NCBI GenBank assembly: GCA_016875475.1
Contig: VGRB01000003.1
Location: 1-40,679 of the forward strand
Reading direction: 5' to 3'
Length of the DNA stretch: 40,679 bases
Source of the DNA: Deltaproteobacteria bacterium
GTDB taxonomy: Bacteria > Myxococcota_A > UBA9042 > DTJE01
Part shown: positions 10,056 through 30,080 of the stretch, piece by piece
Numbering within the stretch: position 1 is the stretch's first letter
How the letters are laid out: every line of letters starts with the position of its first letter
Notes under the pieces: model-generated
Databases searched by the model: none
Told to the model about the DNA's origin: nothing
What the model saw: the letters and a program-made list of their open reading frames with translations, nothing else
Program-made: the position numbers and the translations under genes

Positions 10056-11068
10056 AGGTGCCTCCCCCCCGCCTCCACGAACGGCCTCAGCGCGGCCATC
10101 AGCGCCGCGAACTGCTCCGGAAACAGCGACTGCTTGCCGTCCGACAGCGCGACTTCGGGGTTCTCGTGGACCTCGACGATCAGCCCGTCCGCGCCGCACG
10201 CGGCCGCCGCGAGCGCCATCGGCGTCACGAGGTCGCGGATCCCGGTCCCGTGCGAAGGGTCGACCAGGATCGGCAGGTGGCTCCGCTGCTTGACGAACGG
10301 GACCGCGGACAGGTCGAGCGTGTTCCTCGTCGCGGTCTCGAAGGTCCGGATCCCGCGCTCGCAGAGCACCACGTTCGGGTTGCCCTCGGCGACCACGTAC
10401 TCCGCGGCCATCAGGAGGTCCGTGACGGTCGCGGCGGGCCCGCGCTTCAGCAGGACCGGCCGCGGGCACTGGCCGACCGCCTGGAGCAGCCGGAAGTTCT
10501 GCATGTTGCGCGCGCCGACCTGGATCATGTCCGCGTGCTCGACCACCGCGTCGAGGTCGGACACGTCCACCACCTCGGTCACCACCGGGAGCCCGCGCCG
10601 GCGGCCGACCTCGGACAAGAGGGCGAGCCCGTCGCGGCCGAGCCCCTGGAAGCTGTAGGGGCTGGTCCGGGGCTTGAACGCGCCCCCGCGCAGCACCGAG
10701 GCGCCGGCCTCCTTCACGCGCTCCGCGGTCGCGTCGAGCTGCTCGCGGCTCTCGACCGCGCACGGCCCCGCGACCACCACGAACCGGTCCGACCCGATCC
10801 GCGCTCCGGGCCCGAGCGGCACCACGGTGTCGTGCGGGTGCAGCTCGCGGCTGACGAGCTTGTACGGCGACAGGATCGGCGTGACCGTCTCGACGTGCGG
10901 GTTGCCCTCCAGGTGGAGTCCCGCGAGCACCCGCTCGTCGCCGATCGCGCCGAGCACCGTCCGCTCGGTGCCGGGCAGGTAGAGCGGCTTCAGTCCCGTG
11001 GCCGCGATCTGGTCGAGGATCCGGTCGCAGTCCTCCTTCGACGTGCCGGGCTTCAAGACGATGATCAT
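10052..11068 (-). CDS. aroF: DAHP synthase, type I-beta with N-terminal ferredoxin-like regulatory domain
   Basis: MIIVLKPG..., AGPCAVES, RGGAFKPRTSPYSFQGLG, QVGARNMQNF, CERGIRTFE, DPSHGTG, ALSDG. Confidence 0.95.
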   Translation of the reverse strand: MIIVLKPGTSKEDCDRILDQIAATGLKPLYLPGTERTVLGAIGDERVLAGLHLEGNPHVETVTPILSPYKLVSRELHPHDTVVPLGPGARIGSDRFVVVAGPCAVESREQLDATAERVKEAGASVLRGGAFKPRTSPYSFQGLGRDGLALLSEVGRRRGLPVVTEVVDVSDLDAVVEHADMIQVGARNMQNFRLLQAVGQCPRPVLLKRGPAATVTDLLMAAEYVVAEGNPNVVLCERGIRTFETATRNTLDLSAVPFVKQRSHLPILVDPSHGTGIRDLVTPMALAAAACGADGLIVEVHENPEVALSDGKQSLFPEQFAALMAALRPFVEAGGRHL

Positions 11069-12342
11069 CGCTTCTCCTCCAGTGCGCCGAACACCGCGTC
11101 CGCGACGGTCGCGTCCACCCCGAGCCGCTCCGCCGCCTCGCGCCTCGCCGCGGCGATCCGCTCGGCCGCCTCGCCGGACGGCCGTGCGCCCGCGGCCCTC
11201 GCGACCTCGGCCCGCGCCGCGACCGCGCGGAGCAGCTCCGCGTCGCGATACGCGATCTCGGCCTCCCAAGCGCCGGGATCCGCGGCCGCCCCCGCGATCG
11301 CGGACTGGCGCAGCGCCGCGTCGCACAGCACGATCGCGACCATCGCCTCGGCCACGGGCACGAGCCTGGGCGCGATGCACGGGTCGTGTCGGCCCGGCAC
11401 CGAGATCGTCACCCCCTCGCCCGCCGCGTTCACGGTGCGCTGGGGCAGCGCGATCGACGAGGTCGGCTTGACCGCGACCCGCGCGACGATCGGCTGGCCG
11501 GTCGAGATCCCGCCGAGCAGGCCGCCCATCCGGTTCGTCTCGAACCCCCCCGCCACAAGCGCGTCGTTCGACGCCGAACCCCGCATGCCCGCGAGGGCGA
11601 ACCCGGCCCCGAACTCGACCGCCTTGACCGCGCCGATCGACAGGAGCGCCGCCCCGAGCAGCGCGTCGAGCTTGCCGAAGACCGGGTCGCCCCAACCCGC
11701 GGGCACGCCCTCCGCCACGACCTCCACCACCCCGCCGAGCGAGTCGCCCGCCGCCTTGGCGTCGAGCACCGCGGCCTCCATGCGCGCCGCCGCCTCCGGG
11801 TCCGCGCACCGGACCGCGTTCCGCTCGATCTCCGCCGGGTCGAACCGCGCCGCCTCCACGTCCCCTATCCGGACAACGTGTCCGGTCACGCGCGCGCCCC
11901 GCGCCGCGAGCACCTGCTTCGCGATCGCGCCCGCCGCGACCCGGGCCACGGTCTCGCGTCCCGACGTCCTGCCCCCCCCGCGCCAGTCCCTCACGCCGAA
12001 CTTGGCCCCCCACGTCCAGTCCGCGTGGCCCGGCCGGAACACGTCCTTCAGCGCCTCGTAGTCCGCGCTCCGCTGGTCGCGGTTCCGGACCAGCAGCGCG
12101 ATCGGCGCGCCCGTGGTGCGGCCCTCGAAGATGCCCGAGAGCACCTCGACCTCGTCGGCCTCGCGACGCCCGGTCGACACGGCGCTCTGCCCGGGCCGCC
12201 TCCGCGCGACCTCGGCCCGGAGCGCGTCCAGGTCCACCGGCACGCCCGGCATGACCCCGTCCACCACCACGCCGAGCGCCGGGCCGTGGCTCTCGCCGAA
12301 CGTGGTCACGCGGAAGCAGTCGCCGAAGGAGTTCGCGGACAT
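11065..12342 (-). CDS. aroC: Chorismate synthase with a C-terminal degenerate chorismate-mutase (AroQ)-like extension
   Basis: TTFGESHG, FRPGHAD, RGGGRTSGRET, GGISTG, KPTSSI, GRHDPCI, followed by ~70 extra helical residues. Confidence 0.95.
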   Translation of the reverse strand: MSANSFGDCFRVTTFGESHGPALGVVVDGVMPGVPVDLDALRAEVARRRPGQSAVSTGRREADEVEVLSGIFEGRTTGAPIALLVRNRDQRSADYEALKDVFRPGHADWTWGAKFGVRDWRGGGRTSGRETVARVAAGAIAKQVLAARGARVTGHVVRIGDVEAARFDPAEIERNAVRCADPEAAARMEAAVLDAKAAGDSLGGVVEVVAEGVPAGWGDPVFGKLDALLGAALLSIGAVKAVEFGAGFALAGMRGSASNDALVAGGFETNRMGGLLGGISTGQPIVARVAVKPTSSIALPQRTVNAAGEGVTISVPGRHDPCIAPRLVPVAEAMVAIVLCDAALRQSAIAGAAADPGAWEAEIAYRDAELLRAVAARAEVARAAGARPSGEAAERIAAARREAAERLGVDATVADAVFGALEEKR

Positions 12343-12436
12343 GGGTCTCCCCCCCGCCGCGCGTCCGTCCGATTCACCCCCGGCGGGCCGCGGCGGCGTC
12401 AACGCCGCGGCCCGAGGACGCGCGGCGGGCAAATCC

Positions 12437-13654
12437 TCAACCCGGCCCGTCGGCCGCGGCCCGGATCGCGTCGATCGCGTCCCAGAAGGCCGGGAACGAC
12501 TTCGCGACGCACCCGGGATCCTGCACGCTGACGCCAGGGATCGCGAGCGACACGGCCGCGAACGCCATGGCCATGCGGTGGTCGCCGGCCGGGTCCAGCG
12601 CGACATTGCGCGGGATCCGGTCGGCCAGCGGCAGGACCTCCATCCCGTCCGTGTGCTCGACGATCCTCGCTCCGAGCGCCCGGAACCCGCGCACCAGCAC
12701 GGCGATCCGGTCGGACTCCTTGATCCTCGTGTGCGCCGCGCCGTCGATCCGCGTCGCGTGGGACGCGAGCAGGGCGCTCGCCGCGAGCGGCGGCAGCAGG
12801 TCCGGGCAGTCCGCGAGGTCGAACGCGTGCGGCCGCGGCAGGTCCAGCTCGGCGAGCATGCCCGCGAACCGCGAGTCCCCCTGGAGCGACTCGCCCGGCG
12901 GCGGCAGGCCCGGCAGCGCGACCTCCACGCCGGCGGCGCGGCCCGCCGCGAACAGCAGCGCGGCCCCGGACCAGTCGGGCTCGACCACGACCGCGTCGCC
13001 GGCCCACGCGTACCGTCCGGGGCGCACGACGAAGGTGCGGCCGTCGGGCCGATCCGCCGCGGCCCCCGCCGACGCCATCATCCTGGCCGTCATGTCGAGA
13101 TAGGGCTCGGACACGACCCGGCCGACGAGCCTGATGCGCAGCCCGGCGGGCAGCCGCGGCGCGACCATCAGGAGGCCGCTCGCGAACTGGCTCGAGAGCG
13201 ACGAGTCGATGTCGACCTCGCCCCGGATCGCCCCCCCACCGGTCAGCGCGACCGGCGGGAACCCCGCGCGGCGGAGCCACCGCACGCCGACGCCGAGCGA
13301 CTCGAGCGCCTCGCCGAGCGGGTTGAGCGGCCGCTCCCGCATCCGCGCGTCGCCGTCCAGCGTGATCGTGCCCCGGGCGACCAGCGAGAGCGCCGCGCCG
13401 AAGCGCACCGCCGTGCCCGCGTTCCCGCACCAGACCGGCGCGCCGCCGGCCGCGAGCGGGCCCGGGGTGACGAGGACCTGGTCCGCGTCCCATTCGACGC
13501 GCGTGCCGATCGCGCGCAGCAGGTCGGTCAGCCGGGCCGAGTCGTCGCACGCGAGCGCGCCCCTCACCCGCGCCGGCCGCTCGCCGAGCGCGGCCAGCAT
13601 CAGGGCCCGCTGCGTGATGCTCTTGGAGCCCGGCGCCTTCAGGGTCACGGTCAT
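12437..13654 (-). CDS. aroA: 3-phosphoshikimate 1-carboxyvinyltransferase (EPSP synthase)
   Basis: PGSKSITQR, GNAGTAVRF, RMRERP, SSQFASG, RIKESDR, DHRMAM, KSFPAFW. Confidence 0.95.
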   Translation of the reverse strand: MTVTLKAPGSKSITQRALMLAALGERPARVRGALACDDSARLTDLLRAIGTRVEWDADQVLVTPGPLAAGGAPVWCGNAGTAVRFGAALSLVARGTITLDGDARMRERPLNPLGEALESLGVGVRWLRRAGFPPVALTGGGAIRGEVDIDSSLSSQFASGLLMVAPRLPAGLRIRLVGRVVSEPYLDMTARMMASAGAAADRPDGRTFVVRPGRYAWAGDAVVVEPDWSGAALLFAAGRAAGVEVALPGLPPPGESLQGDSRFAGMLAELDLPRPHAFDLADCPDLLPPLAASALLASHATRIDGAAHTRIKESDRIAVLVRGFRALGARIVEHTDGMEVLPLADRIPRNVALDPAGDHRMAMAFAAVSLAIPGVSVQDPGCVAKSFPAFWDAIDAIRAAADGPG

Positions 13655-15018
13655 GCCAACAACTCCGACAGCTCCGCGGGCGAGACGGGCTCGCCGAGCA
13701 GGAACGTCATCTGGGCGGCGCCCTGGTGCACCCACATCGCGTGGGGACCGAGCACGACCGCGCCCGCGGCCCGGGCCCGCGAAAGCAGCTCCGACGGGCC
13801 GTCGGCCATCGCCAGGTCGAACACCACGGCAGCCCCGGGAGGCGCGTCGAACGGCCACGAGGCGTCCGGCGTCGCGTTCACGATCACGTCCGCGGCCGCG
13901 CGGTCGCGGCGGTCCCAGGGCACCGATTCGAGACCCGCGACCGGTTTCCGCGCCGCCACGACCACGTCCAGGCCGAGGTCCCGGCAGGCCGCGATCGCGG
14001 CCGACGCGGCGCCCCCCGCGCCGAAGACCAGCGCCCGGCCGCGCCGCGTGCCGAGAACCGCGGCGAGCGGCTCCCTCACGCCCGCCACGTCCGTGTTCGT
14101 CGCGAGGAAGCGCGTCCCGTCGACCTTGAGCGTGTTCGCGGCGCCGACCCGCGCGGCCTCCGCGTCCGGCTCGCCGTGCGCGAGCGCGGCCTCCTTGTGC
14201 GGCATGGTCACGGCGATCCCCGCGGCCCCGAGCGCGGCCAGCAGGTCGAACGTCTCGCGCGGCCTCGGGGAAGCCTCGATGCCGCGCTTCCGGAACAGGC
14301 GGCCATAGACCCGGGGACCGGGCGAGCGCGCGACGACCGGACCGCCGACCAGCGCGTGGAAGGGCCGGTCGGCCGAGCCGGGAAGGCCCGCGTCGATCGC
14401 GTCGTCGAGCGACGGCTGCCCCGGAGCGGACGCGGTCGCGGAAGACGCGGCCACGTAGGTCCACGGCGAGCCGAAGGCGCGGTAGCGGACCCGCGAGAGC
14501 GCGCCCGCCGCGCCCATGCCGATCAGGACGCGGCGTCCGGGCGACCGCGACGCGAGCAGGCGCGCGAGGTCCGCGGGGTCATCCACCCGGACCGCGACCT
14601 TGACCACGTCGGCCCCCGCCGCCTCGAGCGCGGTCGCGCGGGCCGCGATGTCCGGCGGGAAGCCGTTGAAATCGTGGAACGACCTGACGATCCGCGTGGC
14701 GGTCGCGCCCCCGCGCGGGATGGCGGCATCGACGTCGGCCTCCACGTCCGCCGCGAACGGCCCGAGCGCGATCGCGGCCCGGAGGAGGTCCAGGCGCGCG
14801 GCCTCGTCGCCGGTCCACAGCCCCCCCTGGCGGACCGGCCGCGCGGCGAGGATCAGCGAGCCGATCCATGGCGAGAGCGAGGGCAGCACCTCGGCGGGGG
14901 GGTCTTCGAGCGCGTCGAGCCGGACCTCCTGGATGCAGCCCGGGAGGCGCGAGGCCACGGCCGCGACCCGGGACAGCAGGGGCCCGGCCGCGCGCTCGAG
15001 TCCGGTCACGCAGAGCAT
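13651..15018 (-). CDS. aroDE: Bifunctional type I 3-dehydroquinate dehydratase / shikimate dehydrogenase (AroD-AroE fusion)
   Basis: EVRLD, R-x-x-x-QGG, DVE, SFHDF, DVVKVA, IGMG, APGQ (AroD part), then S-x-G-P, VTMPHK, GAANT, NTD, FGAGGAA, VNAT, MWVHQG (AroE part). Divergent. Confidence 0.85.
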   Translation of the reverse strand: MLCVTGLERAAGPLLSRVAAVASRLPGCIQEVRLDALEDPPAEVLPSLSPWIGSLILAARPVRQGGLWTGDEAARLDLLRAAIALGPFAADVEADVDAAIPRGGATATRIVRSFHDFNGFPPDIAARATALEAAGADVVKVAVRVDDPADLARLLASRSPGRRVLIGMGAAGALSRVRYRAFGSPWTYVAASSATASAPGQPSLDDAIDAGLPGSADRPFHALVGGPVVARSPGPRVYGRLFRKRGIEASPRPRETFDLLAALGAAGIAVTMPHKEAALAHGEPDAEAARVGAANTLKVDGTRFLATNTDVAGVREPLAAVLGTRRGRALVFGAGGAASAAIAACRDLGLDVVVAARKPVAGLESVPWDRRDRAAADVIVNATPDASWPFDAPPGAAVVFDLAMADGPSELLSRARAAGAVVLGPHAMWVHQGAAQMTFLLGEPVSPAELSELLA

Positions 15019-16091
15019 GCGCGCTCCCAGGCGTCGGCGAGCACGGCCGCGGGCACGGGCACGGTGTAAAGGCCGTCCCCCGGCTCCATCTCGCCGATGC
15101 GGCGGGGAAGGGCGCACCGGACCTCGCCCTCCCGGCCCTTCTTGTCCGCGGCGAGCCACGGCTCCGCGAGGGCGAACGGCACGGGGGGGGAAGCGGGGAG
15201 CCCGATCGTCCGGAGCACGGCGCGCAGGCGGTCCACGGAGGCCTCCGGGAACGAACCGAGACGCGACGCGACGATCGCCTCGACGACCATCCCGGCGGCG
15301 ACCGCCGCGCCGTGCGGGACCGAGTGTCGCGTGGCGGCCTCGATCGCGTGGCCCGCGGTGTGGCCGAAGTTCAGGACCGCGCGCAGGCCCCGCTCGGTCT
15401 CGTCCGCCTCGACCACGCGCGCCTTGACCGCGGCGAGCCGGACCAGGAGCTTCGGGGACAGGGACCGCGGCGACGCGGCGATCCCCTCGACCTCGGCGAA
15501 CAGGTCCTCGCCCGCGATCACCGCGTGCTTGACCGCCTCGGCGAGCCCGTTTCGCCATTCCGCGTCGGGCAGCGACGAGAGCGCGGCGTGGTCCAGGAAG
15601 ACCGCGGCCGGCTGCCGGAACGCGCCGACGAGGTTCTTGCCGCGCGGCGTGTTGACGCCGGTCTTCCCGCCGATGGCCGCATCGACCTGGGCGAGCAGGG
15701 TGGTGGCCACGTTGACGTGGGCGACGCCGCGCAGGTACGTCGCCGCGACGAAGCCCGCGACGTCGAGCGCGATCCCGCCGCCGACCGCGACGACGCAGGC
15801 GTCCCGGTCCACGCCGGCGGCGAGCATCGCGTCCTCGAGGTTCGCCTTGGTCTCGCGCGTCTTGTTCGTCTCGCCCGCGGGGAAGTCGAGGACGAGGGTG
15901 CTGCGGACGAACGGCTCGATCGCGCCGGCGATCGCGCCGCCGAACCGGCCCGCCGTGTTCCTGTCGCCGATCACCACCCCCTGGCGCCACGCTGGGTCCC
16001 AGGCCCCGACGATCGCGGCCGGAGCGTACCCGCCCGAGTAGACCGGGCAGGAGCGGCCGCCGGGCAGGCGCATGACGAACGCGGGATCCAC
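15006..16091 (-). CDS. aroB: 3-dehydroquinate synthase
   Basis: GETNKT, VGGGIALDVAGFVAATYLRG, TTLLAQVDAAIGGKTGVN, KNLVGAF, LNFGHTAGHAIE, HGAAV, DKK. Start is GTG 16091 or ATG 16073. Confidence 0.95.
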   Translation of the reverse strand: MDPAFVMRLPGGRSCPVYSGGYAPAAIVGAWDPAWRQGVVIGDRNTAGRFGGAIAGAIEPFVRSTLVLDFPAGETNKTRETKANLEDAMLAAGVDRDACVVAVGGGIALDVAGFVAATYLRGVAHVNVATTLLAQVDAAIGGKTGVNTPRGKNLVGAFRQPAAVFLDHAALSSLPDAEWRNGLAEAVKHAVIAGEDLFAEVEGIAASPRSLSPKLLVRLAAVKARVVEADETERGLRAVLNFGHTAGHAIEAATRHSVPHGAAVAAGMVVEAIVASRLGSFPEASVDRLRAVLRTIGLPASPPVPFALAEPWLAADKKGREGEVRCALPRRIGEMEPGDGLYTVPVPAAVLADAWERACSA

Positions 16092-16156
16092 GATCGGGCA
16101 ACCTCGCGATCCGGAGGCAGAAGGATACCCGAAAACGTGGGGAGGCGGGGCCGGAG

Positions 16157-17341
16157 CTACAGCGAGTCCTTCACCACGCGGTAGGCCTCGCGGAACGGGA
16201 TCCCGCGGTCGCGGACCAGGGCGTAGGCGCGCTCGGTCGCGAGCAGGGAGCCGTCCATCGCGGCGGCGAGGCGCTCGGCGACGAACTCGACGCCGGGCAG
16301 CGCGTGGGCCATCACGGCCGCGGTGTCGCGCACGGAGTCCATGCCGCGGAACAGGGGCTTCTTGATCCCCTGGAGGTCGCGGTGGTAGCCGGAGGTCAGC
16401 TTCGAGACGACCCCGAGCACCTCGTGGAGGGCCGCGACCGCCTCGGCCGTGCGGCCGCGCGCCAGCTCGAACACGTCCGGGTTGCGCTTCTGGGGCATGA
16501 TGGACGAGCCCGTGGTGAACCGATCCGGCAGCCGCACGAATCCGAACTCGGCGGTCGCGAACAGGCAGAGGTCCGCGGAGAGGCGGCCGAGGTCGATCGC
16601 GAGCAGGGCCGCCTCGAACAGCGCGGACGCCTCGGCCTTGCCGCGCGAGAGCTGGACCGCGGTGACCGGCTCGTGCGGGGCCGCGAACCCGAGCGCCGAC
16701 GTGGTCGCGGCCCGATCGAGGGGCAGCAGCGGCACGCCGTAGCCCGCCGCGGACCCGAGCGGGTTCAGGTCGGCCCGCCGGCGCGCGAGCCGCATCCCCT
16801 GCGCGTCGTCCCGCACCTCGGCCGCGAACGCGCCGGCCCACAGTCCGACGGTGGACGGCATGGCGCGCTGCGCGTCGGTGTAGCCGGGCATCGCGAGCGC
16901 GCCCTGTCGCGCCGCGAGGCCGTCGAGCGCCGCGGCGACCTCCTCGGCCTGGTCCGCCAGTTCCGCCGCGGCCGCCTTCAGCCACAGCCGGACCGCCGCG
17001 AGCACCTGGTCGTTCCGCGACCGGCCGAGGTGGACCCGGCCGCCCGCCTCGCCGATCCTCGCGACCAGCCGGTTCTCGATCGCGGTGTGGCAGTCCTCCT
17101 CCTCGGGCGAGACGCGCCACTCCCCCCGTGCGTGCGCCTCGCCGACCTCGCGGAGCGCGTCGCGGATCGCCGCGTGGTCCGTGTCCGAGAGGAAGCCCGC
17201 GGCGTGCAGCATCGCCGCGTGCGCCGCGGACGCCTCCACGTCGAAGGCCACGAGGCGCTCGTCGAGCGCGTGGTCCTCTCCCGCGGTGTACCGGAGCACC
17301 AGGTCGTCGAGCGGCTCGCCCTTGTCCCACAAGCGCTTCAT
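16157..17341 (-). CDS. argH: Argininosuccinate lyase (short form; conserved His reads Asp)
   Basis: MKRLWDKG, EDCHTAIE, HLGRSRNDQV, MPGYTDAQRA, PLGSAAGYG, TGSSIMPQKRNPD, GYHRDLQ, GIPFREAY. Confidence 0.9.
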   Translation of the reverse strand: MKRLWDKGEPLDDLVLRYTAGEDHALDERLVAFDVEASAAHAAMLHAAGFLSDTDHAAIRDALREVGEAHARGEWRVSPEEEDCHTAIENRLVARIGEAGGRVHLGRSRNDQVLAAVRLWLKAAAAELADQAEEVAAALDGLAARQGALAMPGYTDAQRAMPSTVGLWAGAFAAEVRDDAQGMRLARRRADLNPLGSAAGYGVPLLPLDRAATTSALGFAAPHEPVTAVQLSRGKAEASALFEAALLAIDLGRLSADLCLFATAEFGFVRLPDRFTTGSSIMPQKRNPDVFELARGRTAEAVAALHEVLGVVSKLTSGYHRDLQGIKKPLFRGMDSVRDTAAVMAHALPGVEFVAERLAAAMDGSLLATERAYALVRDRGIPFREAYRVVKDSL

Positions 17342-17348
17342 GACGGTG

Positions 17349-17377
17349 GTTGTAGACGACGCGGCGCCGGGGCGCAA
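17349..17377 (-). promoter_or_regulatory. sigma70-type promoter of argH, probably leaderless mRNA
   Basis: Minus strand TTGCGC-N17-TACAAC. The -10 ends 7 nt before the ATG at 17341 and there is no SD sequence. Confidence 0.55.
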
Positions 17378-17404
17378 GTCGAGCGATCCGCGCCGAGGCG
17401 CGGA

Positions 17405-17452
17405 GCGCTCGGCGGCCGCAAGGCGGCCGCGCAAGGGGGGTGGCCCGCGCCC
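17405..17452 (+). repeat. 48-bp GC-rich palindromic repeat element, copy 1
   Basis: GCGCTCGGCGGCCGCAAGGCGGCCGCGCAAGGGGGGTGGCCCGCGCCC is the exact reverse complement of 40632-40679. Confidence 0.85.
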
Positions 17453-17504
17453 GGGCTCGGGTTCGGGCTCGGGTACGGGCTCGGGCTTGGACGGGCACGG
17501 GAGG
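17452..17504 (+). repeat. Degenerate hexamer tandem repeat (CGGGYW)n
   Basis: cgggct cgggtt cgggct cgggta cgggct cgggct ... cgggca cgggagg. Confidence 0.75.
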
Positions 17505-17559
17505 CTCGCGGTCCCGGCGACCGTGCTACACTGATGCGAATCCGATCGAGGCGCGCGCG

Positions 17560-18075
17560 TTGGAAGCCACGGTCCGAGTCCTGAACGACCTGGAAGCCGC
17601 GGGCGTCGTCCGTCGGTACGCAATCGCCGGGGCCATGGGCGCCAACTTCTACATCGAGCCGACGGCCACGGAGGACCTGGACGTGCTGGTGCTCCTCCCG
17701 GCGGCGCCGGCGTCGCCGGACGTCCTTCGCCCCATCTACAGGTTCCTCGTTGACGAGAGGGGCTTCGCCGCGGAGCGCGAGTGTGTCGTGGTCGCGGGGA
17801 TCCCCGTGCAGTTCCTGGAGGTCTTCGACCCGCTCACGACCGAGGGCCTGGACGAGGCGGTCGAGTTCCCGGTGGGCGGGACACGCGCCCGCGTGCTGCG
17901 GATCGAGCACTTGATGGCCATCATGCTCCAGGTCGGGCGGCCGAAGGACCACGTCCGCCTGGCCCTGGCGATCGAGCAGGCCGACTGGGACCGCGACCGG
18001 TTCCGCGCGGTCATCGGCCGGCACGGCCTCCGCGCGAGGTGGGCGGCCTTCCGCCGGAGGTTCAACCATGGGTGA
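17560..18075 (+). CDS. Pol-beta-superfamily nucleotidyltransferase (putative toxin-like)
   Basis: TTG start with GAGG upstream. YAIAGAMGANFY...TEDLDVLV matches the G-[GAS]...D-x-D signature, with a C-terminal GRPKD motif. Confidence 0.65.
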   Translation: MEATVRVLNDLEAAGVVRRYAIAGAMGANFYIEPTATEDLDVLVLLPAAPASPDVLRPIYRFLVDERGFAAERECVVVAGIPVQFLEVFDPLTTEGLDEAVEFPVGGTRARVLRIEHLMAIMLQVGRPKDHVRLALAIEQADWDRDRFRAVIGRHGLRARWAAFRRRFNHG

Positions 18076-18259
18076 GCGCGAGCTGCCCGCACGCGTGCGC
18101 GAGCGCCTGGCGGCCCGGGAGGCGTCGCGGCGAGCGCTGGCGAGGCTGCCCATCGAGGAGAAGGTGAGGATCATCGTCCGGATGCAGCGGGCGGCGCGCG
18201 CGATCGCCCTGGCGACGGGAAGGCCTCCCCCGAGGGTCTGGGACCTGCCGACGGATTGA
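18068..18259 (+). CDS. Small helical protein (63 aa), putative partner of the nucleotidyltransferase
   Basis: Overlaps the NTase stop by 8 nt. Basic helical sequence RRALARLPIEEKVRIIVRMQR. Confidence 0.55.
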   Translation: MGERELPARVRERLAAREASRRALARLPIEEKVRIIVRMQRAARAIALATGRPPPRVWDLPTD

Positions 18260-18305
18260 ACCCCGGTCGAATCGAGGACGGGTCCGGGCGCAGCATCGGG
18301 GGGAT

Positions 18306-18320
18306 TCCGGGGTAGAATCC
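18306..18320 (+). promoter_or_regulatory. Promoter core TCCGGGGTAGAATCC (TAGAAT -10) of the tandem-CNB gene
   Basis: 25 nt upstream of ATG 18346. Identical 15-mer on the minus strand at 21535-21549. Confidence 0.55.
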
Positions 18321-18345
18321 GTGCGGCCGACACGGGGGTGCTGCG

Positions 18346-19650
18346 ATGGAATCCACGCCCGACCCGAGGGCGCTGCTCGCGGGGGTGCTGCCGATCCGGA
18401 TCGTGAACGAGGGCGAGGTCCTCTTCAGGGAGGGCGAGCCCGGCGACTCGATGGTGATCGTGTTCGCGGGCATGCTCCGGATCGAGGTCGGGGTGCGCGG
18501 CGGCGGCAGCGTCGAGATCGGCCAGGCCGGCCCGGGACAGGTGGTCGGCGAGATGACCTGCCTCGACCCGGCGCCGCGGTCCGCGACCGTCACGGCCGCG
18601 CTGGACTCGACGATCATCACGCTCGACCGCGGCACGCTGAACTCGCTTCGGACCTCGGCGCCCGCGGTGTTCACCGAGGTGCTCAAGGTCGTCATCGCGC
18701 AGGTTACGCACCGCGTGCGCGAGGCGGACGAGCGGGTCGGCGACCTCGCGGCCGGGCTCGGGGTGCCGCCCCCGGCCGCCGGCTCCCCGTCGCCGGGCGG
18801 ACCGCCCCCCGGACCGGCGCAGGCCCCGGCGGGGTTCTCCGCGACCGAGATGGCGCTCCTGGACGGCGCGCTCCCGCGCGAGTCCTTCGACGACGGGGGG
18901 GTCGTGTGCCGCGAGGGCGCGCCGGGCGGCTCGTGCTTCGTGCTGCGCTCGGGCGCGGTCGAGGTGCGCAAGGGCGTGGACGGCGGCGAGATCGTGCTGG
19001 CGGTCCTGGCCCCGGGCGCGATCATCGGCCAGATGGCCCTGGTGGACGAACGCCCGAGGTCCGCGACGGTCCGCTGCCGGGGGCCGGTGGACGTGCTCGT
19101 GCTCGACCGGGACCTGTTCGACCGCATGCTGTCCGCGCAGGCGCCGCTCGCGTTGAGGCTCCAGGAGCAGATCGCTATCTCCGGGATCCGGCAGCTCCGC
19201 AACGCGGACCGCTGGCTGTCGTCGCTGTCGGGCAGGCGCCGGACCCTGCCGATGGCAATCGTGTCGCCGCCGCGCCCGCCGGCCCCGGCCGCATCCACCG
19301 CACCGGCTTCGCGGTCCGCGCCCGCCGCGCGGCCCGCTCCGACCTCGGGACCGTCGACCACCCCGAAGCTCCCCGCGTTGCTCGCGGAGCACCCCGCTCC
19401 GGCTCCGAAGACGGAGGCGGCGCCCCTCCGGGCGGCGCCCCCCCGCGTCCCGGGCAGCCCCGTAGCGGCACCCGTCGGCTCCGAGGCGAGCGAGGCGCAG
19501 CGCGAGGCGCACCTGTTCATGTTCATGCGGACCGCGCTGAACGAGTGGGGGATGTCCACGGACGACGTCGATGGGGTGAAGGCGGTGGAGCCGCACGGGC
19601 ACATCAGCAAGGCCGAACTGAACGCCCGGAAGGGGAAGTGGACGGATTGA
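18346..19650 (+). CDS. Protein with two cyclic-nucleotide-binding (CNB) domains and a Pro/Ala-rich tail
   Basis: LFREGEPGDSM...GQVVGEMTCLDPAPRSATV and VCREGAPGGSCF...GAIIGQMALVDERPRSATV. No HTH or enzymatic domain visible. Confidence 0.9.
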   Translation: MESTPDPRALLAGVLPIRIVNEGEVLFREGEPGDSMVIVFAGMLRIEVGVRGGGSVEIGQAGPGQVVGEMTCLDPAPRSATVTAALDSTIITLDRGTLNSLRTSAPAVFTEVLKVVIAQVTHRVREADERVGDLAAGLGVPPPAAGSPSPGGPPPGPAQAPAGFSATEMALLDGALPRESFDDGGVVCREGAPGGSCFVLRSGAVEVRKGVDGGEIVLAVLAPGAIIGQMALVDERPRSATVRCRGPVDVLVLDRDLFDRMLSAQAPLALRLQEQIAISGIRQLRNADRWLSSLSGRRRTLPMAIVSPPRPPAPAASTAPASRSAPAARPAPTSGPSTTPKLPALLAEHPAPAPKTEAAPLRAAPPRVPGSPVAAPVGSEASEAQREAHLFMFMRTALNEWGMSTDDVDGVKAVEPHGHISKAELNARKGKWTD

Positions 19651-19697
19651 GGGGGGGGCGCGCGCGACCTCTCCGGCGCGTTACTCGCCCGAACCCG

Positions 19698-21512
19698 TCA
19701 CCCCCCGGCGGGCTGCGGCGCGATCCCCAGCCGGCGCGCCATGTCGGCCTTGTCGAGCGCGTGGGACATCGCCTCGTCGGCCTCGATCGCGCCGGACTTG
19801 ACCAGGCGCTCCAGCGAGGCGTTCAGGAAGCAGTTCCCGGCCGCGCCGCCCGTGCTCATGATGCTCGCGATCTGGTGGGTCTTGCCCTCGCGGACCAGGT
19901 TCGCGATCGCGGCGTTGACCACCATGACCTCGACCGCCGCCACCCGGCCGCCCCCGATCCGGCGGCACAATGCCTGTGAGACCACCCCCTTCAACACGTC
20001 GCCGAGCGTCGCGCGGACCTGGGCCTGCTGCTCGGCCGGGAACAGGTTCACGATGCGGTCCACCGTGCTGATCGCAGTCGAGGTGTGGAGCGTCCCGAAC
20101 ACGAGGTGCCCCGTGTTCGCGGTCTCGAGCGCGAGCGAGATGGTCTCGAGGTCGCGCATCTCGCCGACGAGCACGATGTCCGGGTCCTCGCGGAGCGCGG
20201 ACTTCAGCGCGCGCGAGAACGACTTCGTGTGCGTCCCGACCTCGCGCTGGTTCACGAGGCAGGCCGCGGACGCGTGCACGAACTCGACCGGGTCCTCCAG
20301 CGTGATGATGTGACCCTTGCGCTTCTTGTTCAGCGCGTCGATCATGGCCGCGAGCGTGGTGGACTTGCCGGAGCCGGTCGGACCGGTCACCAGGACCAGG
20401 CCCTTCGGGTACTCGCACAGCTTCATCACGACCGGCGGCAGGTCGAGCTTGTCGAGCGGGAGGACCTTCTCCGGGATCTGGCGCAGGACCGCGCACACGC
20501 CACGGATGTCGCGGAACAGGTTCACGCGGAAGCGGGCGAGCCCCGGCACGCCGTGCGCGAAGTCCAGATCCCCCCCGGACTCGAACTCCGCGCTCTGGTC
20601 GTCGTTCAACAGGGGCCGCATCATGTCGCGCACGTCGGACGGCCCGAGGGGCTCGCCGTCGGGGACCTCGCTCACCTGGCCGTCCACGCGCCAGCGCGGC
20701 TTCCCCCCCGCGGACAGGTGCAGATCGGAGGCGCCCTCCCGGACCATGCGGTACAGCAGCCGATCGAGACGGCCAGCGGCGCTTCCGGCCGCGCCAGGAG
20801 TCGTCGCCGGCGCGGGGTGCGCGGTCGCGTCGAGCACGCGGTCAGCGAGGGCCGCGGGGATGCGCACCGGGAGGATCCGGACGCCGGGCATCAGCCGGCG
20901 GACCGCCTCGAGCACCTGCGTGGACGGGTCCCGCACGAACCCCATTTCGAGCTGGTCGTCCTTCAGCCTGAGCGGCAGCACGCGGTGGTTCTGCAGGAAC
21001 GGCAGCGGCAGCCGCGACACGAGGTCCGGGTCCGGGTCGGCGACGTCGGACGCGACCAGCGGGACCTGGTGGGACGCGTCCGCGACCCGCTTGGCGAGCA
21101 CGCGGCAGACCGCGAGCCCGAACTCCGGGATCCGCCGGAACAGCTCGACGAACACGTCCTCGCCGAACCGGAGCGCGAGCACCTGCGTCTCGGCCACCAC
21201 GGTCGCGGTGCGCGGAGTGCCGAGGATCAGGCCCAGCTCGCCGATGACGTCGAGTTGCGCGAGGTGCGCGACCGTGCTCGCGGCCCCGCCGCCCGGCGGC
21301 TCGACCTGCACGACCGCCTCGCCCCTCATCAGGACGTAGAAGGCGTCGGACCGCTCGCCCTCGCGGACGATCGTCTCCTTCGGCTCGTACTGGACCGCCG
21401 TCGCCATGTGCGCGACGCGCTCGGCCCGCTCCTCGCCGAGCGGCTGGAAGAGCGGGGCGCGCACGAGCGCCGCCGCGACCGTCCGCGGGTCCGGGATCGG
21501 CACCTGCCGCAT
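19698..21512 (-). CDS. pilT: PilT-family type IV pilus retraction ATPase with N-terminal CNB domain and a PilB/GspE-N-like domain
   Basis: CNB domain (IVREGERSDAFYV...VIGELGLILGTPRTATV). T2SSE_N-like segment (RLPLPFLQNHRVLPLRLKDDQLEMGFVRDP). PilT core (ASDLHLSAG, RFRVN, GPTGSGKSTT, TLEDPVE, LREDPDIVLVGEMRD, TGHLVFGTLH, AIANLVREGK). Confidence 0.9.
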   Translation of the reverse strand: MRQVPIPDPRTVAAALVRAPLFQPLGEERAERVAHMATAVQYEPKETIVREGERSDAFYVLMRGEAVVQVEPPGGGAASTVAHLAQLDVIGELGLILGTPRTATVVAETQVLALRFGEDVFVELFRRIPEFGLAVCRVLAKRVADASHQVPLVASDVADPDPDLVSRLPLPFLQNHRVLPLRLKDDQLEMGFVRDPSTQVLEAVRRLMPGVRILPVRIPAALADRVLDATAHPAPATTPGAAGSAAGRLDRLLYRMVREGASDLHLSAGGKPRWRVDGQVSEVPDGEPLGPSDVRDMMRPLLNDDQSAEFESGGDLDFAHGVPGLARFRVNLFRDIRGVCAVLRQIPEKVLPLDKLDLPPVVMKLCEYPKGLVLVTGPTGSGKSTTLAAMIDALNKKRKGHIITLEDPVEFVHASAACLVNQREVGTHTKSFSRALKSALREDPDIVLVGEMRDLETISLALETANTGHLVFGTLHTSTAISTVDRIVNLFPAEQQAQVRATLGDVLKGVVSQALCRRIGGGRVAAVEVMVVNAAIANLVREGKTHQIASIMSTGGAAGNCFLNASLERLVKSGAIEADEAMSHALDKADMARRLGIAPQPAGG

Positions 21513-21534
21513 GGTCGTCCTCCTGCGAGCAGGG

Positions 21535-21549
21535 GGATTCTACCCCGGA
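21535..21549 (-). promoter_or_regulatory. Promoter core TCCGGGGTAGAATCC of the CNB-PilT gene
   Basis: 22 nt upstream of ATG 21512. Identical to 18306-18320. Confidence 0.55.
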
Positions 21550-21704
21550 TGACCGCCCGCCATTCGCGCCGGATTCCCGAGCGCCCCCGCGGAGGTGCGA
21601 GCCGGCGGTTCGCGCCGGCCTCGCGGCGTCTCCTACACTGGTTACCTTGCGGGTTTCGCCTTGCTGGTTGCGGCCGCGGGAGCGCGGCCACGGAGGTGAT
21701 GGGA

Positions 21705-22082
21705 ATGGAGAAGAAGGTCAACGTCGCCAACTGGTTCGAGATCCCGGTGCGCGACATGTCGCGGGCGGTCGCGTTCTACGAACACGTGTGCGGCGTGAAG
21801 CTCCGCCCGAACGAGATGGGGCCGCTCAAGATGGCGTGGTTCCCCTGGGAGGCCGGCGCCGAGGGCGCGCCCGGGTCCCTCGTGTGCGGGCCCGGCTACG
21901 TCCCGTCGGACCGCGGCTCGATCGTCTACCTGACCGTGGACGACCTGGACGCCGCGCTCGGCCGCGTCGAGGCGACGGGCGGCAAGGTGCTCCAGCCGAG
22001 GACCCCGATCGGCGAGTACGGGTTCGTGGCGCACTTCGGGGACTGCGAAGGCAACCGCGTCGCCCTGCACTCGATGCAGTAG
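21705..22082 (+). CDS. VOC/glyoxalase-family protein
   Basis: GGAGGT RBS. WFEIPVRDMSRAVAFYE...VYLTVDDLDAAL-x-RVEATGGKV...DCEGNRVALH. Confidence 0.9.
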   Translation: MEKKVNVANWFEIPVRDMSRAVAFYEHVCGVKLRPNEMGPLKMAWFPWEAGAEGAPGSLVCGPGYVPSDRGSIVYLTVDDLDAALGRVEATGGKVLQPRTPIGEYGFVAHFGDCEGNRVALHSMQ

Positions 22083-22175
22083 GGGCGGCCGCAGCGGGGG
22101 CCGGCGCGCCCTCGGCCGTCGGCGTTCATGCCGCCGCCGGCCGCCCGGGATGAAACGGGCCGGGCGCGCCGGGCG

Positions 22176-23159
22176 TCAGCCCCCCCCCGTCCGCTCCTCG
22201 CGCACGGTGTAGGCCGGCTTCTCCATCATGCGGAAGTGCATGCGCGCGAGGTACTCCCCGATCACGCCGATCGCGAAGAGCTGCGCGCCCGAGAAGATCG
22301 CGACGATCGACGCGAGGAACGGGAACCCGGGCACGCTCCCCCCCTCGACCAGGTAGCGCCCGAAGACCCAGGCGAGCACGCCCACCCCGAACAGCGCCAG
22401 CGAGAACCCGACCACGCTCGCGACCTGGAGCGGGAACGTCGAGAACCCGGTCATCATGTTCATCGCGTGCCGGATCAGCGAGCGGAACGTGTAGTTCGAC
22501 GCGCCGTGGCGCCGCGGCTCGTGCCGGACCGGCACCGCGGAGAAGCGGTCGGTCCCCCACGTCAGGAGCACGTCGATCGACACGAACGGGCTGCGGTACC
22601 CGTCGAACGCCTCGCGCACCTTCGTCCGGAACGCTCGGAACGCGCTGACGTGGCGGGCGTTCTCGCCGCCGATCGCCTGCGACAGCGCCGCCTTTGTCAC
22701 GCGCGACGCGACCTTCCGCCACAGGTTGTGACGTTCGTCCTCCGGCGTGCCGAACACGACGTCGAACCCCTCGTCGAGGCGCGAGAGCAGCTTCGGGACC
22801 TCCTCGGGGGGGTGCTGGAGGTCGTCGTCCAGGGTCACGATCACGTCGTGTTGCGCCGCGCGGATGCCGCAAAGCAGCGCCGCGTGCTGGCCCGAGTTGC
22901 GCGCGAGGTCGAACGTCCTGAGCCAGGGGCGGCCGGGCAGCAGCGAGTCCATGACCGTCCGGCTCGCGTCGCGGCTCGCGTCGTTGACCAGGATGACCTC
23001 GTGGGCTTCGCAGATCGGGTCCAGCGCGGCGTGGAGGCGGTCGACCAGGTCCGGCAGGGAACCCGCGGCGTTGAAGACGGGGATGACGACGGAGACCGTG
23101 CGGGCGGGCACGGGCACGGACACGGACACGGGCATGGGCTCGGGCTCGGGTACGGGCAC
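22176..23159 (-). CDS. GT2 polyprenol-phosphate glycosyltransferase (ArnC/GtrB-like, two C-terminal TM helices)
   Basis: SVVIPVFN, VNDASRD, RNSGQHAA, TLDDDLQHPPE, IGEYLAR. Start is GTG 23159 or ATG 23135; the N-terminus is encoded by a hexamer repeat. Confidence 0.9.
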   Translation of the reverse strand: MPVPEPEPMPVSVSVPVPARTVSVVIPVFNAAGSLPDLVDRLHAALDPICEAHEVILVNDASRDASRTVMDSLLPGRPWLRTFDLARNSGQHAALLCGIRAAQHDVIVTLDDDLQHPPEEVPKLLSRLDEGFDVVFGTPEDERHNLWRKVASRVTKAALSQAIGGENARHVSAFRAFRTKVREAFDGYRSPFVSIDVLLTWGTDRFSAVPVRHEPRRHGASNYTFRSLIRHAMNMMTGFSTFPLQVASVVGFSLALFGVGVLAWVFGRYLVEGGSVPGFPFLASIVAIFSGAQLFAIGVIGEYLARMHFRMMEKPAYTVREERTGGG

Positions 23160-28235: not shown

Positions 28236-28319
28236 GCCGAGGCGAACTGTAACACGGTCCCCGGTTGATCCCCCCCGGGCCGTGCCGTATACTGTCGTCC
28301 GGCAAGCACGGGGGCTCCG

Positions 28320-30080
28320 ATGAGGCGTGCCTCGACCGCAGTGCTCGCGACCGCGATGCTCGCGACCCTGCTCGCGTGCGCGCCCGGCAAGGGCCGGGAC
28401 GACCCGTGCGGCGGCACGGACCTCCCGGCGGAGACGCCCGAGTCGACGCCGGCGGACCTCCCGCCCGAACCCTCTCCCGTCCCCGAACCCGAGCCCGAGC
28501 CCGAACCCGATGTCCCGCCGGACCCCGCGCCGGACCTCGCGCCCGACCCTGCGCCGGAGCCCGGCCCCGACGTGCCGCCCTGCACCCCTGCCGCGGAAAG
28601 CTGCAACGGCAAGGACGACGACTGCGACGGGGTGACGGACGGCCCGGGGGACGGGCTGCCAGGCTGCACGCCGCGCTTCGCGGATCGCGACGGCGACGGC
28701 CACGGCGACCCCGGCGACGAGCGCTGCCTGTGCGCGCCCGTGCCGCCGCACTTCGCGACCGCGGGAGACGACTGCGACGACGGGGACCCGGGCATCCCGA
28801 GCCCGACGTCCGGGTGCGACGGCGGCTGCCCGGACGGGCAGACCACGGGCACGGAGGCGTGCGACGACGGAAACGGGTTCCCCTGGGACGGCTGCGACGC
28901 GTGCAAGAAGCGCGGTTTCGTCGCGGCCGCCCAGTCGGACCATGCCGACCCGGCGATCGCGACGTCCGGCGACCGGCTCGCCGTGGTCTTCACCGCGGAC
29001 GGATACACGCGCAACGTGTACGCGCAGGTGTTCGATTTGTCCGGGCCGAAGCTCACGAAGGTCGGCGCGGAGGTGGCCCTCGGCGGGGGGCACTTCCTTC
29101 CCGGCGGCGAGCAGCTGCAGGGCGGAGGCTCCGTCGCGGGTCTCGCCAACGGCCGGTTCATTGCGGCGTGGGACGCATGGGGGCTCGACGGCGACGACTT
29201 CGGGGTGTTCCTGGCGACGTTCACGTCGAACGGGGTCGACAGCCGGAGCACGGCCAACGAGCACTGGCAGGCGCGCCAGCTCGCGCCGGCGGTCGCGGCC
29301 CGGGCGACCGGCGGGCTCGTGGCGTGGCAGGGCTGGGACGACGGCGGCAGCGGGTACGACGTCTATGCGCGCCCGTTCGGGACGTGGGGCGACCCGTCCT
29401 CGCCGGAGGTCCGGCTGAACGAGTTCTGGGCCGGCGACCAGGAGCGGCCGGACGTGGTCGCCTTGACGGACGGCGGGTTCGCGGTCGCGTGGCTGTCGGA
29501 CCTCCAGGCCGACGGCAAGCCCGCGATCGTGGTCCGCGGCTTCGCGGACGACTCCGCGCCGATCTCGGCCGAGGTCGTACTCCCGGTCGGGCGGTCGGCG
29601 GGAAGGCCGTCGCTCGCCGCGCTCGGGGCAAAGCGGATCCTCGTCGCCTGGGACTCGCAGGAATCCTGGGAGGTCCGGCCGCAGGTCCGGCACGCCGTCG
29701 TGGACCTCTCGGCGCCGGGACCGGTCGCGGTAGCCGAGGTCCCGCCCGTGCCGGACGCGCCCTGGTACGTCACCGGTGCCGGCACCGCGGGCGTCGCGGC
29801 GATCCCGGGGAAGGGCTTCGCGATCGCGTACGAGGCCTGGCAGCACCGCTGGATCCGCGCGCGGGGGTTCACCGAGGCAGGCGAGGTCGCCTGGGAGCGG
29901 GACGTCAGCCCTGCGCACGACGGCCTCGGCGGCTGGGGAGACATGGGGGCGTCCCCGGCCGCGACGTTCCTGCCCGACGGCCGGCTGGCGATCGCCTGGG
30001 TGTGCACGTTCTCGAGCGGACACCCTACCCACGGGACGTGCCTGTCCGCCCTGACCGTCCCCTTCACGCCGTCGCCTTGA
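28320..30080 (+). CDS. Putative surface lipoprotein with Pro/acidic linker, Cys/Asp-rich metal-binding repeats and a C-terminal repeat (propeller-like) domain
   Basis: Signal peptide ending in lipobox LLAC. PEPEPEPEP linker. ESCNGKDDDCDG, DRDGDGHGDP, DCDD and EACDDGN...DGC are myxobacterial-type motifs. Confidence 0.75.
   Translation: MRRASTAVLATAMLATLLACAPGKGRDDPCGGTDLPAETPESTPADLPPEPSPVPEPEPEPEPDVPPDPAPDLAPDPAPEPGPDVPPCTPAAESCNGKDDDCDGVTDGPGDGLPGCTPRFADRDGDGHGDPGDERCLCAPVPPHFATAGDDCDDGDPGIPSPTSGCDGGCPDGQTTGTEACDDGNGFPWDGCDACKKRGFVAAAQSDHADPAIATSGDRLAVVFTADGYTRNVYAQVFDLSGPKLTKVGAEVALGGGHFLPGGEQLQGGGSVAGLANGRFIAAWDAWGLDGDDFGVFLATFTSNGVDSRSTANEHWQARQLAPAVAARATGGLVAWQGWDDGGSGYDVYARPFGTWGDPSSPEVRLNEFWAGDQERPDVVALTDGGFAVAWLSDLQADGKPAIVVRGFADDSAPISAEVVLPVGRSAGRPSLAALGAKRILVAWDSQESWEVRPQVRHAVVDLSAPGPVAVAEVPPVPDAPWYVTGAGTAGVAAIPGKGFAIAYEAWQHRWIRARGFTEAGEVAWERDVSPAHDGLGGWGDMGASPAATFLPDGRLAIAWVCTFSSGHPTHGTCLSALTVPFTPSP

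Follow-up and report, generated by a model that had tools for sequence, protein, structure and literature searches.

A PilT-type motor ATPase with a predicted cyclic-nucleotide sensor domain, and its convergent tandem-CNB neighbour, in a myxococcotal contig

Can a motor of the kind that retracts type IV pili carry a second-messenger sensor of its own? Control of type IV pilus motors by cyclic di-GMP (c-di-GMP) is known on extension ATPases (MshE, PilB and FimX–PilZ–PilB). The question is posed for a retraction-type motor by two genes in a 40,679-nucleotide stretch of contig VGRB01000003.1 from a Deltaproteobacteria bacterium of the Myxococcota_A; this whole stretch is the window of the following text. 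A sequence-only reading had described one gene product as a 604-aa fusion of a cyclic-nucleotide-binding (CNB) domain, a PilB-N-like segment and a PilT core, and the other as a tandem-CNB protein, proposing that the pair forms an undescribed retraction module switched by cAMP or cGMP. The list of open reading frames (ORFs) bears out both genes and their convergent layout:

19698..21512, (−) strand: gene for the CNB–MshEN_C–PilT ATPase (CNB-PilT), 604 aa, ATG start, stop codon at 19698-19700 (ORF list, Pfam, NCBIfam)
18346..19650, (+) strand: gene for the tandem-CNB protein (CNB2), 434 aa (ORF list, Pfam)

The two stop codons are separated by 47 bp. M1 of CNB-PilT is at least 90% conserved in a 70-member family alignment, which supports the annotated start codon. 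Strong Pfam and NCBIfam profile matches, together with motif searches by regular expression, confirm that the 604-aa protein holds both a CNB domain and a PilT core, the latter formed as follows:

19701..20768, (−) strand: PilT-type motor core, N-terminal PAS-like plus RecA-like ATPase domains, residues 249-604 (TIGR01420, 3jvu, 6ojy_F)
20364..20387, (−) strand: Walker A motif GPTGSGKS, residues 376-383 (regular expression; alignment columns G377-T386 invariant or near-invariant)
19890..19913, (−) strand: AIANLVRE, an AIRNLIRE-type helix, residues 534-541 (regular expression)
20769..20816, (−) strand: flexible linker preceding the core, residues 233-248 (low predicted local distance difference test (pLDDT) values, variable in alignments)

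Pfam places a T2SSE match at residues 249-519 (E 4.3e-46), and the NCBIfam model TIGR01420 (pilT_fam; cut-off 319.1 bits) matches residues 249-589 with 444.7 bits, over positions 2-342 of its 343; the GspE and PilB equivalog models stay far below their own cut-offs. Regular expressions further locate DIVLVGE (Walker B and catalytic Glu) at 444 and the His box HLVFGTLH at 468; the Walker A, Walker B/Glu and His box columns are at least 90% conserved in the family alignment, and the AIRNLIRE-type helix is a feature that we take to mark PilT. A search of PDB sequences gives Pseudomonas aeruginosa PilT as the best match (3jvu, 364.6 bits), followed by Geobacter PilT4 and Aquifex PilT, with PilU entries at 250.8 and 244.4 bits and GspE and PilB at ~117-120 bits. 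An AlphaFold2 model built from 70 homologues is confident (pLDDT 93.0, predicted template modelling score 0.77), the pLDDT falling to 56 for residues 231-240, and its core superimposes on PilT4 (6ojy_F) with a TMt of 0.96 at 50% identity (Foldseek).

The position of this core was placed in a quick IQ-TREE tree of 79 trimmed core rows, with SH-aLRT support only. The rows comprise 26 fused family members plus the window protein, seven other paralogs of its own genome, three PilB-like outgroups, and pilT–pilU tandems and orphan PilTs from named genomes; two of the 28 family picks (P0246 and P0253) were kept out, their cores being of GspE/PilB type. All 27 fused cores form one clade (SH-aLRT 100), whose sister (support 99) consists of 13 unfused orphan PilT paralogs from Myxococcota, Planctomycetota, Kiritimatiellota and Geobacter-like records. 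Fused and sister clades lie inside a group with proteobacterial PilT, apart from two PilU clades. Judged by profile scores, the modelled fold and this placement, the motor core is PilT-type, not PilU or PilB, as the sequence-only reading had it.

Upstream of the core, and facing the question of a sensor directly, stands the CNB domain:

21072..21491, (−) strand: CNB domain, residues 8-147, including a C-helix at 129-147 (PF00027, fold search)
21201..21245, (−) strand: phosphate-binding cassette GELGLILGTPRTATV, residues 90-104 (regular expression)

The cNMP_binding family PF00027 matches residues 40-127 (E 5.8e-16, 58.7 bits against a cut-off of 27.5), and a regular expression finds the cassette GELGLILGTPRTA at residue 90. 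In the 70 aligned members, which come from several phyla, G64 and G91 are invariant and E92, G94, L96, L97, R101 and A103 are at least 90% conserved; from PKA and CRP we presume that cassette residues, including E92 (ribose) and R101 (phosphate), are ligand contacts. Conservation of the cassette residues argues for a working site for some cyclic nucleotide in CNB-PilT. A separate model of the N-terminal region (pLDDT 94.1) aligns to CNB structures over residues 5-152, with VIA Z values of 19-20 over residues 3-162, and PycTIR CNB with cUMP (Z 19.8), Thermus thermophilus CAP (19.1) and Clr–cAMP (19.0) are ties; the top Foldseek matches of the same model are GlxR and CRP with cAMP.

Between sensor and motor lies the segment that the sequence-only reading had called PilB-N-like:

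20817..21068, (−) strand: MshEN_C-like alpha/beta subdomain, residues 149-232 (PF05157, profile against PDB)

MshEN (PF05157) matches residues 149-216 with E 9.8e-7 and 29.1 bits (cut-off 23.1), over profile positions 2-69 of 90, and in the N-terminal model the stretch from residue 162 to 231 forms three strands and three helices. When residues 148-234 of 18 loci were combined into a profile and searched against PDB sequences, it modestly matched residues 91-153 of the PilB N-domain in 7lkm (E 2.3e-4), and also M. xanthus PilB residues 70-124 and Geobacter PilB residues 86-141. In excerpts of the MshEN structure paper (Wang et al., PMC5013675), MshEN_N (residues 1-64) is described as a four-helix bundle whose two 24-residue motifs bind c-di-GMP, and MshEN_C (residues 65-145) as an alpha/beta subdomain of a three-stranded sheet and three helices; an excerpt of PMC6858323 holds only a remark on the PilB N1D/MshEN, and excerpts of PMC8316039 and PMC12943098 have no bearing on the matter. 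A relaxed regular expression for the 24-residue c-di-GMP motif, RLGxx(L/V/I)(L/V/I)xxG..., finds it in 0 of the 70 family members, the window protein included. Because the motif is absent and the PilB alignment is limited to the MshEN_C region, CNB-PilT appears to keep only MshEN_C: by Pfam and sequence profile its PF05157 segment is that half alone, so that the PilB-N-like label stands as a family assignment and falls as a claim to the full N domain. On the same comparison, the CNB domain occupies the position of the c-di-GMP-binding MshEN_N in MshE and PilB, and the second-messenger input may thus have been swapped on a shared coupling subdomain.

This architecture is anything but private to the window. 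The best 120 homologues (50-63% identity) from a collection of 5.8 billion proteins all carry PF00027 plus PF00437 (120/120), and 113 of them PF05157 as well; they belong to Myxococcota, Verrucomicrobiota, Kiritimatiellae and Vicinamibacteria (cluster P0047, at 53% identity, is from an Archangium record), and database names, where given, read 'twitching motility protein PilT' or 'PilT/PilU family type 4a pilus ATPase'. Fourteen of the 120 have an added PDZ domain, C-terminal in both proteins scanned; P0045, P0099 and 12 more make up a fused sub-clade with an extra PDZ at residues ~600-680. When the N-terminal module (CNB plus MshEN_C, N-module below) is used as query against 1.84 billion representatives, 50 matches are found at E<=1e-30 and 2606 at E<=1e-10; among the 150 matches listed, 72 are single-stretch by hand count, most of these reaching MshEN_C, and the rest are multi-CNB proteins. 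Within the phylum, 60 of 401 sampled genomes carry the N-module (E<=1e-20), two of the 60 covering the CNB only. A search of full-text literature, with subscription journals and supplements outside its scope, returned no paper on a CNB–PilT or CNB–PilB fusion. The proposal of an undescribed system goes too far, as databases hold the architecture in plenty under the name of a PilT/PilU family ATPase; by that literature search, the fused PilT subfamily is large, widespread and unstudied.

A looser and more general tie between the two also recurs, in which CNB domains stand beside PilT as separate proteins. Among 80 PilT-relative loci, five are fused and a further eight have a separate CNB ORF beside the PilT gene (from Desulfuromonadales-like, Myxococcales, Nitrospinota and Victivallaceae records):

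L011:6411-7073, L015:6134-6814, L018:1575-2474, same strand as PilT: separate CNB ORFs of the sister clade, directly after PilT
L028:7957-8379, L038:5216-5674, L043:3257-3691: separate CNB ORFs of Nitrospinota, after pilT–pilU
L025:4295-4591, L020:4677-5663: other separate CNB ORFs, beside PilT

Eight is a raw count, several of the loci being close kin and perhaps representing about four independent cases. These stand-alone genes may reflect a pattern of gene fission or fusion. A hidden Markov model of the family MshEN_C gave no match in the unfused sister-clade PilTs, matching only the fused loci L001-L005 and, partially, L074.

From this evidence we favour, as the probable account, a cyclic-nucleotide-regulated PilT-type motor whose neighbour CNB2 is unrelated to it. 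In such a motor, cAMP or cGMP would bind the phosphate-binding cassette (through E92 and R101) and shift the CNB C-helix (129-147), which is continuous into MshEN_C; MshEN_C would in turn act through the low-confidence linker that joins it to the PilT N-domain. Movement of the C-helix could reposition six N-terminal modules relative to a hexameric ring, and this repositioning would switch ATPase cycling, by activation or by inhibition, or the docking of the motor to the pilus platform. CNB-PilT would then serve as an accessory retraction motor, gated by a second messenger at the post-translational level and acting presumably on a type IVa pilus. In favour of this, two other genomes (G012 and G029) have class III cyclase genes only a few kb from the fused gene, and the genome of the window itself has four class III cyclase-domain matches as well as type IV pilus parts (pilB–pilT–pilC and PilM).

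A wider form of this account, possible in our estimation and held more tentatively, is that cAMP or cGMP controls pilus dynamics directly, at the post-translational level, through a portable cassette, in which MshEN_N has been exchanged for a CNB domain and MshEN_C kept, and which is placed on PilT and GspE/PilB-like motors alike. P0246 and P0253, identified as GspE/PilB-type by CxxC...CxxC motifs and long T2SSE coverage, are the relevant cases here; going by their domain matches, the CNB plus MshEN_C cassette is common to extension-type and retraction-type motors. If the portable cassette is real, one cyclic mononucleotide signal in these bacteria could balance extension against retraction without a transcriptional step.

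Several observations weigh against a cyclic-nucleotide-gated retraction motor. The same module on the GspE/PilB-type ATPases P0246 and P0253 means that it is not retraction-specific. In a Pfam scan of stop-to-stop ORFs the 40.7-kb window holds neither a pilus gene nor a cyclase, and with eight PilT paralogs in the genome, a role apart from pili is conceivable. The spread of the N-module is patchy: one of the 18 genomes of the window's own family has it, and 25 of the 29 of family f7. Among CNB structures the cUMP-binding PycTIR matches best, in a tie to within 1 Z with CRP-type domains, so that the ligand may be other than cAMP or cGMP. The literature search described above found no binding, ATPase or genetic study of any family member. 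Wang et al., in the excerpts of PMC5013675, call the role of MshEN_C unclear, which makes transmission through it conjecture.

The strongest competitor changes the task: a PilT-like ATPase that serves something other than type IVa pilus retraction, such as a type II secretion system (T2SS)-like or other type IV filament machine, or the export or handling of a giant surface protein. We consider this unlikely. The genome of the window is an assembly of 5.67 Mb in 721 contigs, 89% complete. Eight of its PilT-family genes score above the cut-off, with the N-module on CNB-PilT only. Its type IV pilus parts are found on other contigs: pilB–pilT–pilC on C122, a second PilB-like/T2SSF pair on C142 and PilM on C643. 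The canonical PilT adjacent to pilB falls in a different clade from CNB-PilT in the 79-row tree, which is compatible with another task, as are the lack of pilus genes in the window and the N-module on GspE/PilB-type ATPases; an excerpt of a Geobacter study (PMC5065972) proposes non-retraction roles for some PilT paralogs. A candidate cargo is suggested by giant Dicty_CTDC-repeat plus LamG proteins (up to 2081 aa), which occur near the fused gene in 6 of 20 loci:

L129:9964-16209, (−) strand: giant CTDC/LamG protein
L130:10099-16257, (−) strand: giant CTDC/LamG protein
L131:2-3151, (+) strand: giant CTDC/LamG protein, partial
L119, L121 and L128: further loci with such a protein

In L129, L130 and L131 (family f7) the ~2050-2080-aa protein is directly upstream of the fused PilT gene on the same strand. 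Such proteins are clustered in f7, however, and the adjacency may be inherited synteny. The core itself also speaks for retraction: it is far above the PilT/PilU cut-off, it keeps the AIRNLIRE-type helix, and its nearest relatives in sequence and fold are bona fide retraction motors. So do M. xanthus PilT paralogs, which still affect S-motility from outside the pil cluster (excerpt of PMC13584747).

Two other paralogs of the same genome are of interest in their own right. On contig C265, a 421-aa ORF (L082:227-1492, (+) strand) starts with a full MshEN-type N domain bearing two motifs like the 24-residue ones, and a PilT paralog (~1500-2547, (+) strand; TIGR01420, 462.5 bits) follows directly; this pair resembles, in domain content, a split version of a c-di-GMP sensor protein plus PilT. 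On C125 (L087:1-2565, (+) strand), the open frame that contains a PilT paralog also includes HEAT/Arm repeats ahead of the core, which may belong to a fusion or to an upstream gene.

Does CNB2 belong to the motor? The sequence-only reading had cast it as co-sensor or adaptor, a protein of two CNB domains lacking an output domain; Pfam agrees on the anatomy, finding cNMP_binding twice (E 2.1e-40) and no further domain:

18397..18738, (+) strand: CNB-A, residues ~18-131 (phosphate-binding cassette VVGEM..PRSAT; G68, E69, R78, S79 and A80 conserved)
18835..19185, (+) strand: CNB-B, residues ~164-280 (phosphate-binding cassette with GQ for GE; G228 invariant, Q229 at least 90% conserved)
19498..19647, (+) strand: C-terminal tail, residues 385-434 (columns 580-630 of the CNB2 alignment, A2; W401 at least 90% conserved)

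The CNB2 alignment describes a family of its own, with a conserved GIRQLR helix, a disordered Pro/Ala-rich linker and a conserved tail of ~45 residues (consensus ALxEWGM...DLD..VV.P.G...AE...R); compared with the Atlas, the tail gave no usable feature match and only weak, short structural look-alikes.

That CNB2 is a dedicated co-sensor or adaptor binding CNB-PilT, both genes making one cyclic-nucleotide-gated retraction system, is suggested by the convergent pair with its 47-bp gap and by the conserved tail, which could serve as a docking peptide. Convergent genes are not co-transcribed, and gene order elsewhere gives the idea little help. Neighbouring genes were compared by all-against-all clustering of ORFs and by sending stop-to-stop ORFs to Pfam, in 19 other fused loci (L001-L005 and L119-L132), in all of which the sequence runs on for 1.1 kb or more downstream of PilT; the count leaves out L133, which is divergent at 29% identity, and L020, where a CNB ORF stands with a PilT core but without MshEN_C. 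A separate CNB gene adjoins PilT in one of the 19, L119 of genome G012. This locus, from the same family as the window, has two CNB ORFs convergent on CNB-PilT and preceded by a dCache–HAMP–cyclase gene (11413-13569, (−) strand), a layout in keeping with a shared system; G012 also has a flanking, upstream GT2 gene in common with the window, so that the adjacency reads as inherited synteny. In L125 (G029), two single-CNB genes and a REC–cyclase gene (13559-15133, (+) strand) lie ~4-6 kb from CNB-PilT, which again could be taken in favour of a joint system. From the other side, 30 further CNB2-like loci were examined, and in none do the flanks (~1.5 kb) hold a PilT core.

Co-distribution shows the same division. 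The CNB2-like family (E<=1e-60) is present in at least 67 of the 401 sampled phylum genomes, its genome counts being a floor from a stricter first look. Both families occur in 28 genomes, the N-module only in 32 and the CNB2-like family only in 39; 28 compares with ~10 expected under independence, which speaks for a partnership. However, 24 of the 28 co-occurrences are in family f7, where the genes are on different contigs, and other classes have 29 genomes with the N-module and 24 with a CNB2-like gene, with an overlap of 0. A complex prediction of CNB-PilT (alignment A1) with CNB2 residues 160-434 (alignment A2) scored 0.18 and 0.15 against a mark of 0.32, and counts neither way. With adjacency at 1/19 and 0/30 and co-distribution confined mainly to f7, the two-protein module does not hold up, and we regard it as very unlikely. 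Going by gene order and domain content, CNB2 is most likely an independent cyclic-nucleotide receptor, brought next to CNB-PilT by lineage-specific gene order.

In a further rival account, the CNB domain is no cyclic-nucleotide receptor at all, and serves in structure or oligomerisation or senses another small ligand, as in some CRP/FNR sensors. DNR, HcpR and FixK2, which have the CNB fold and other ligands, are indeed among the structural matches. This is nevertheless very unlikely, given a GE.GL....R.A cassette at least 90% conserved across the 70 members and their phyla, and best sequence matches to PKA and PKG regulatory subunits and cAMP-binding CRPs. A Pycsar-type defence effector can be dismissed: the PADLOC match to PycTIR covers the CNB only (residues 27-150, E 1.1e-11), and the PilT-motor output and the cyclase-free window also oppose it.

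The surroundings of the pair are metabolic. On one side, Pfam matches of stop-to-stop ORFs give a same-strand aromatic amino-acid gene run followed by a Lyase_1 (argH-like) gene, and on the other a VOC protein, GT2, rfbB/rfbA-like and DegT genes:

4304-17833, (−) strand: aromatic amino-acid run of trpB (trpB-like PALP), trpCF (IGPS–PRAI fusion), trpD, aroC (chorismate synthase), aroA (EPSP synthase), aroD/E (DHquinase–shikimate dehydrogenase fusion) and aroB (DHQ synthase), then the lyase
17440-18075, (+) strand: 211-aa ORF directly upstream of the CNB2 gene, no Pfam or PADLOC match
28269-30077, (+) strand: 586-603-aa ORF with a lipoprotein-like N-terminus, no Pfam or PADLOC match

The chorismate synthase is 62-66% identical to that of metagenome-assembled genomes labelled Polyangiaceae, Myxococcales or Myxococcota, but also of one labelled Acidobacteriota and one labelled Rickettsiales; this housekeeping similarity makes a myxococcotal genome probable. 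The G+C content of the window is ~74%, and a promoter and terminator scan of 17900-22300 returned 0 sites of either kind. The stretch is present in DNA runs of lake-water metagenomes, with no RNA run among those listed.

A large, conserved and confidently folding family such as this one offers a clean test of how a PilT hexamer could be governed by a ligand domain. The same holds for the idea of MshEN_C as a general coupling element, a role left open by the MshEN structure paper. The plain annotation 'PilT/PilU family ATPase' meanwhile hides a regulatory architecture in ~15% of the sampled phylum genomes.

Comparison with known systems shows which parts of CNB-PilT are familiar. With PilT (P. 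aeruginosa 3jvu/3jvv; Geobacter metallireducens PilT4 6ojx/6ojy) it shares a like core (50-53% identity, TMt 0.91-0.96), the Walker A and B motifs, the His box, the AIRNLIRE-type helix and membership of TIGR01420. Solved PilTs have 356-390 aa and no N-terminal extension, in line with the sequence-only statement that canonical PilT lacks such domains, whereas CNB-PilT adds ~245 residues (CNB plus MshEN_C); unlike canonical PilT, it is encoded by an orphan gene away from pil clusters and belongs to a clade of its own. PilU (P. aeruginosa 9n32) and M. xanthus MXAN_1995, MXAN_0415, MXAN_6705 and MXAN_6706 are likewise extra paralogs beside a canonical pilB-adjacent PilT; CNB-PilT is outside the PilU clades and scores lower against PilU (250.8 bits). 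An excerpt of PMC13584747 describes the M. xanthus paralogs as conserved at their termini, apart from MXAN_6705 and PilU, which bear disordered extensions, and that excerpt mentions no CNB domain; four Geobacter PilTs are treated in the excerpted part of PMC5065972.

On the side of the sensor, the closest parallels are regulated enzymes and factors: the PKA regulatory subunit, CRP/GlxR, the M. tuberculosis acetyltransferase Rv0998 (4ava) and PycTIR have the same CNB fold and cassette N-terminal to an output (NCBIfam lists Pat CNB on CNB-PilT at E 1e-10). Their outputs are other than that of CNB-PilT, which is a secretion-type ATPase and probably a hexamer. The nearest system in plan is that of MshE and PilB (Vibrio cholerae MshE; M. 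xanthus and Geobacter PilB; Xanthomonas citri PilB 7lkm), likewise an N-terminal second-messenger sensor on a PilT/VirB11-like ATPase, and likewise with the MshEN_C alpha/beta subdomain. In the searchable literature we found no retraction motor with a sensor domain of its own, nor any pilus ATPase with cAMP or cGMP as a direct input. Where MshE and PilB have a four-helix MshEN_N with two c-di-GMP motifs, CNB-PilT has a CNB domain, and where their motor is of the extension type, that of CNB-PilT is of the retraction type, without the Zn-binding CxxC pairs of P0246 and P0253.

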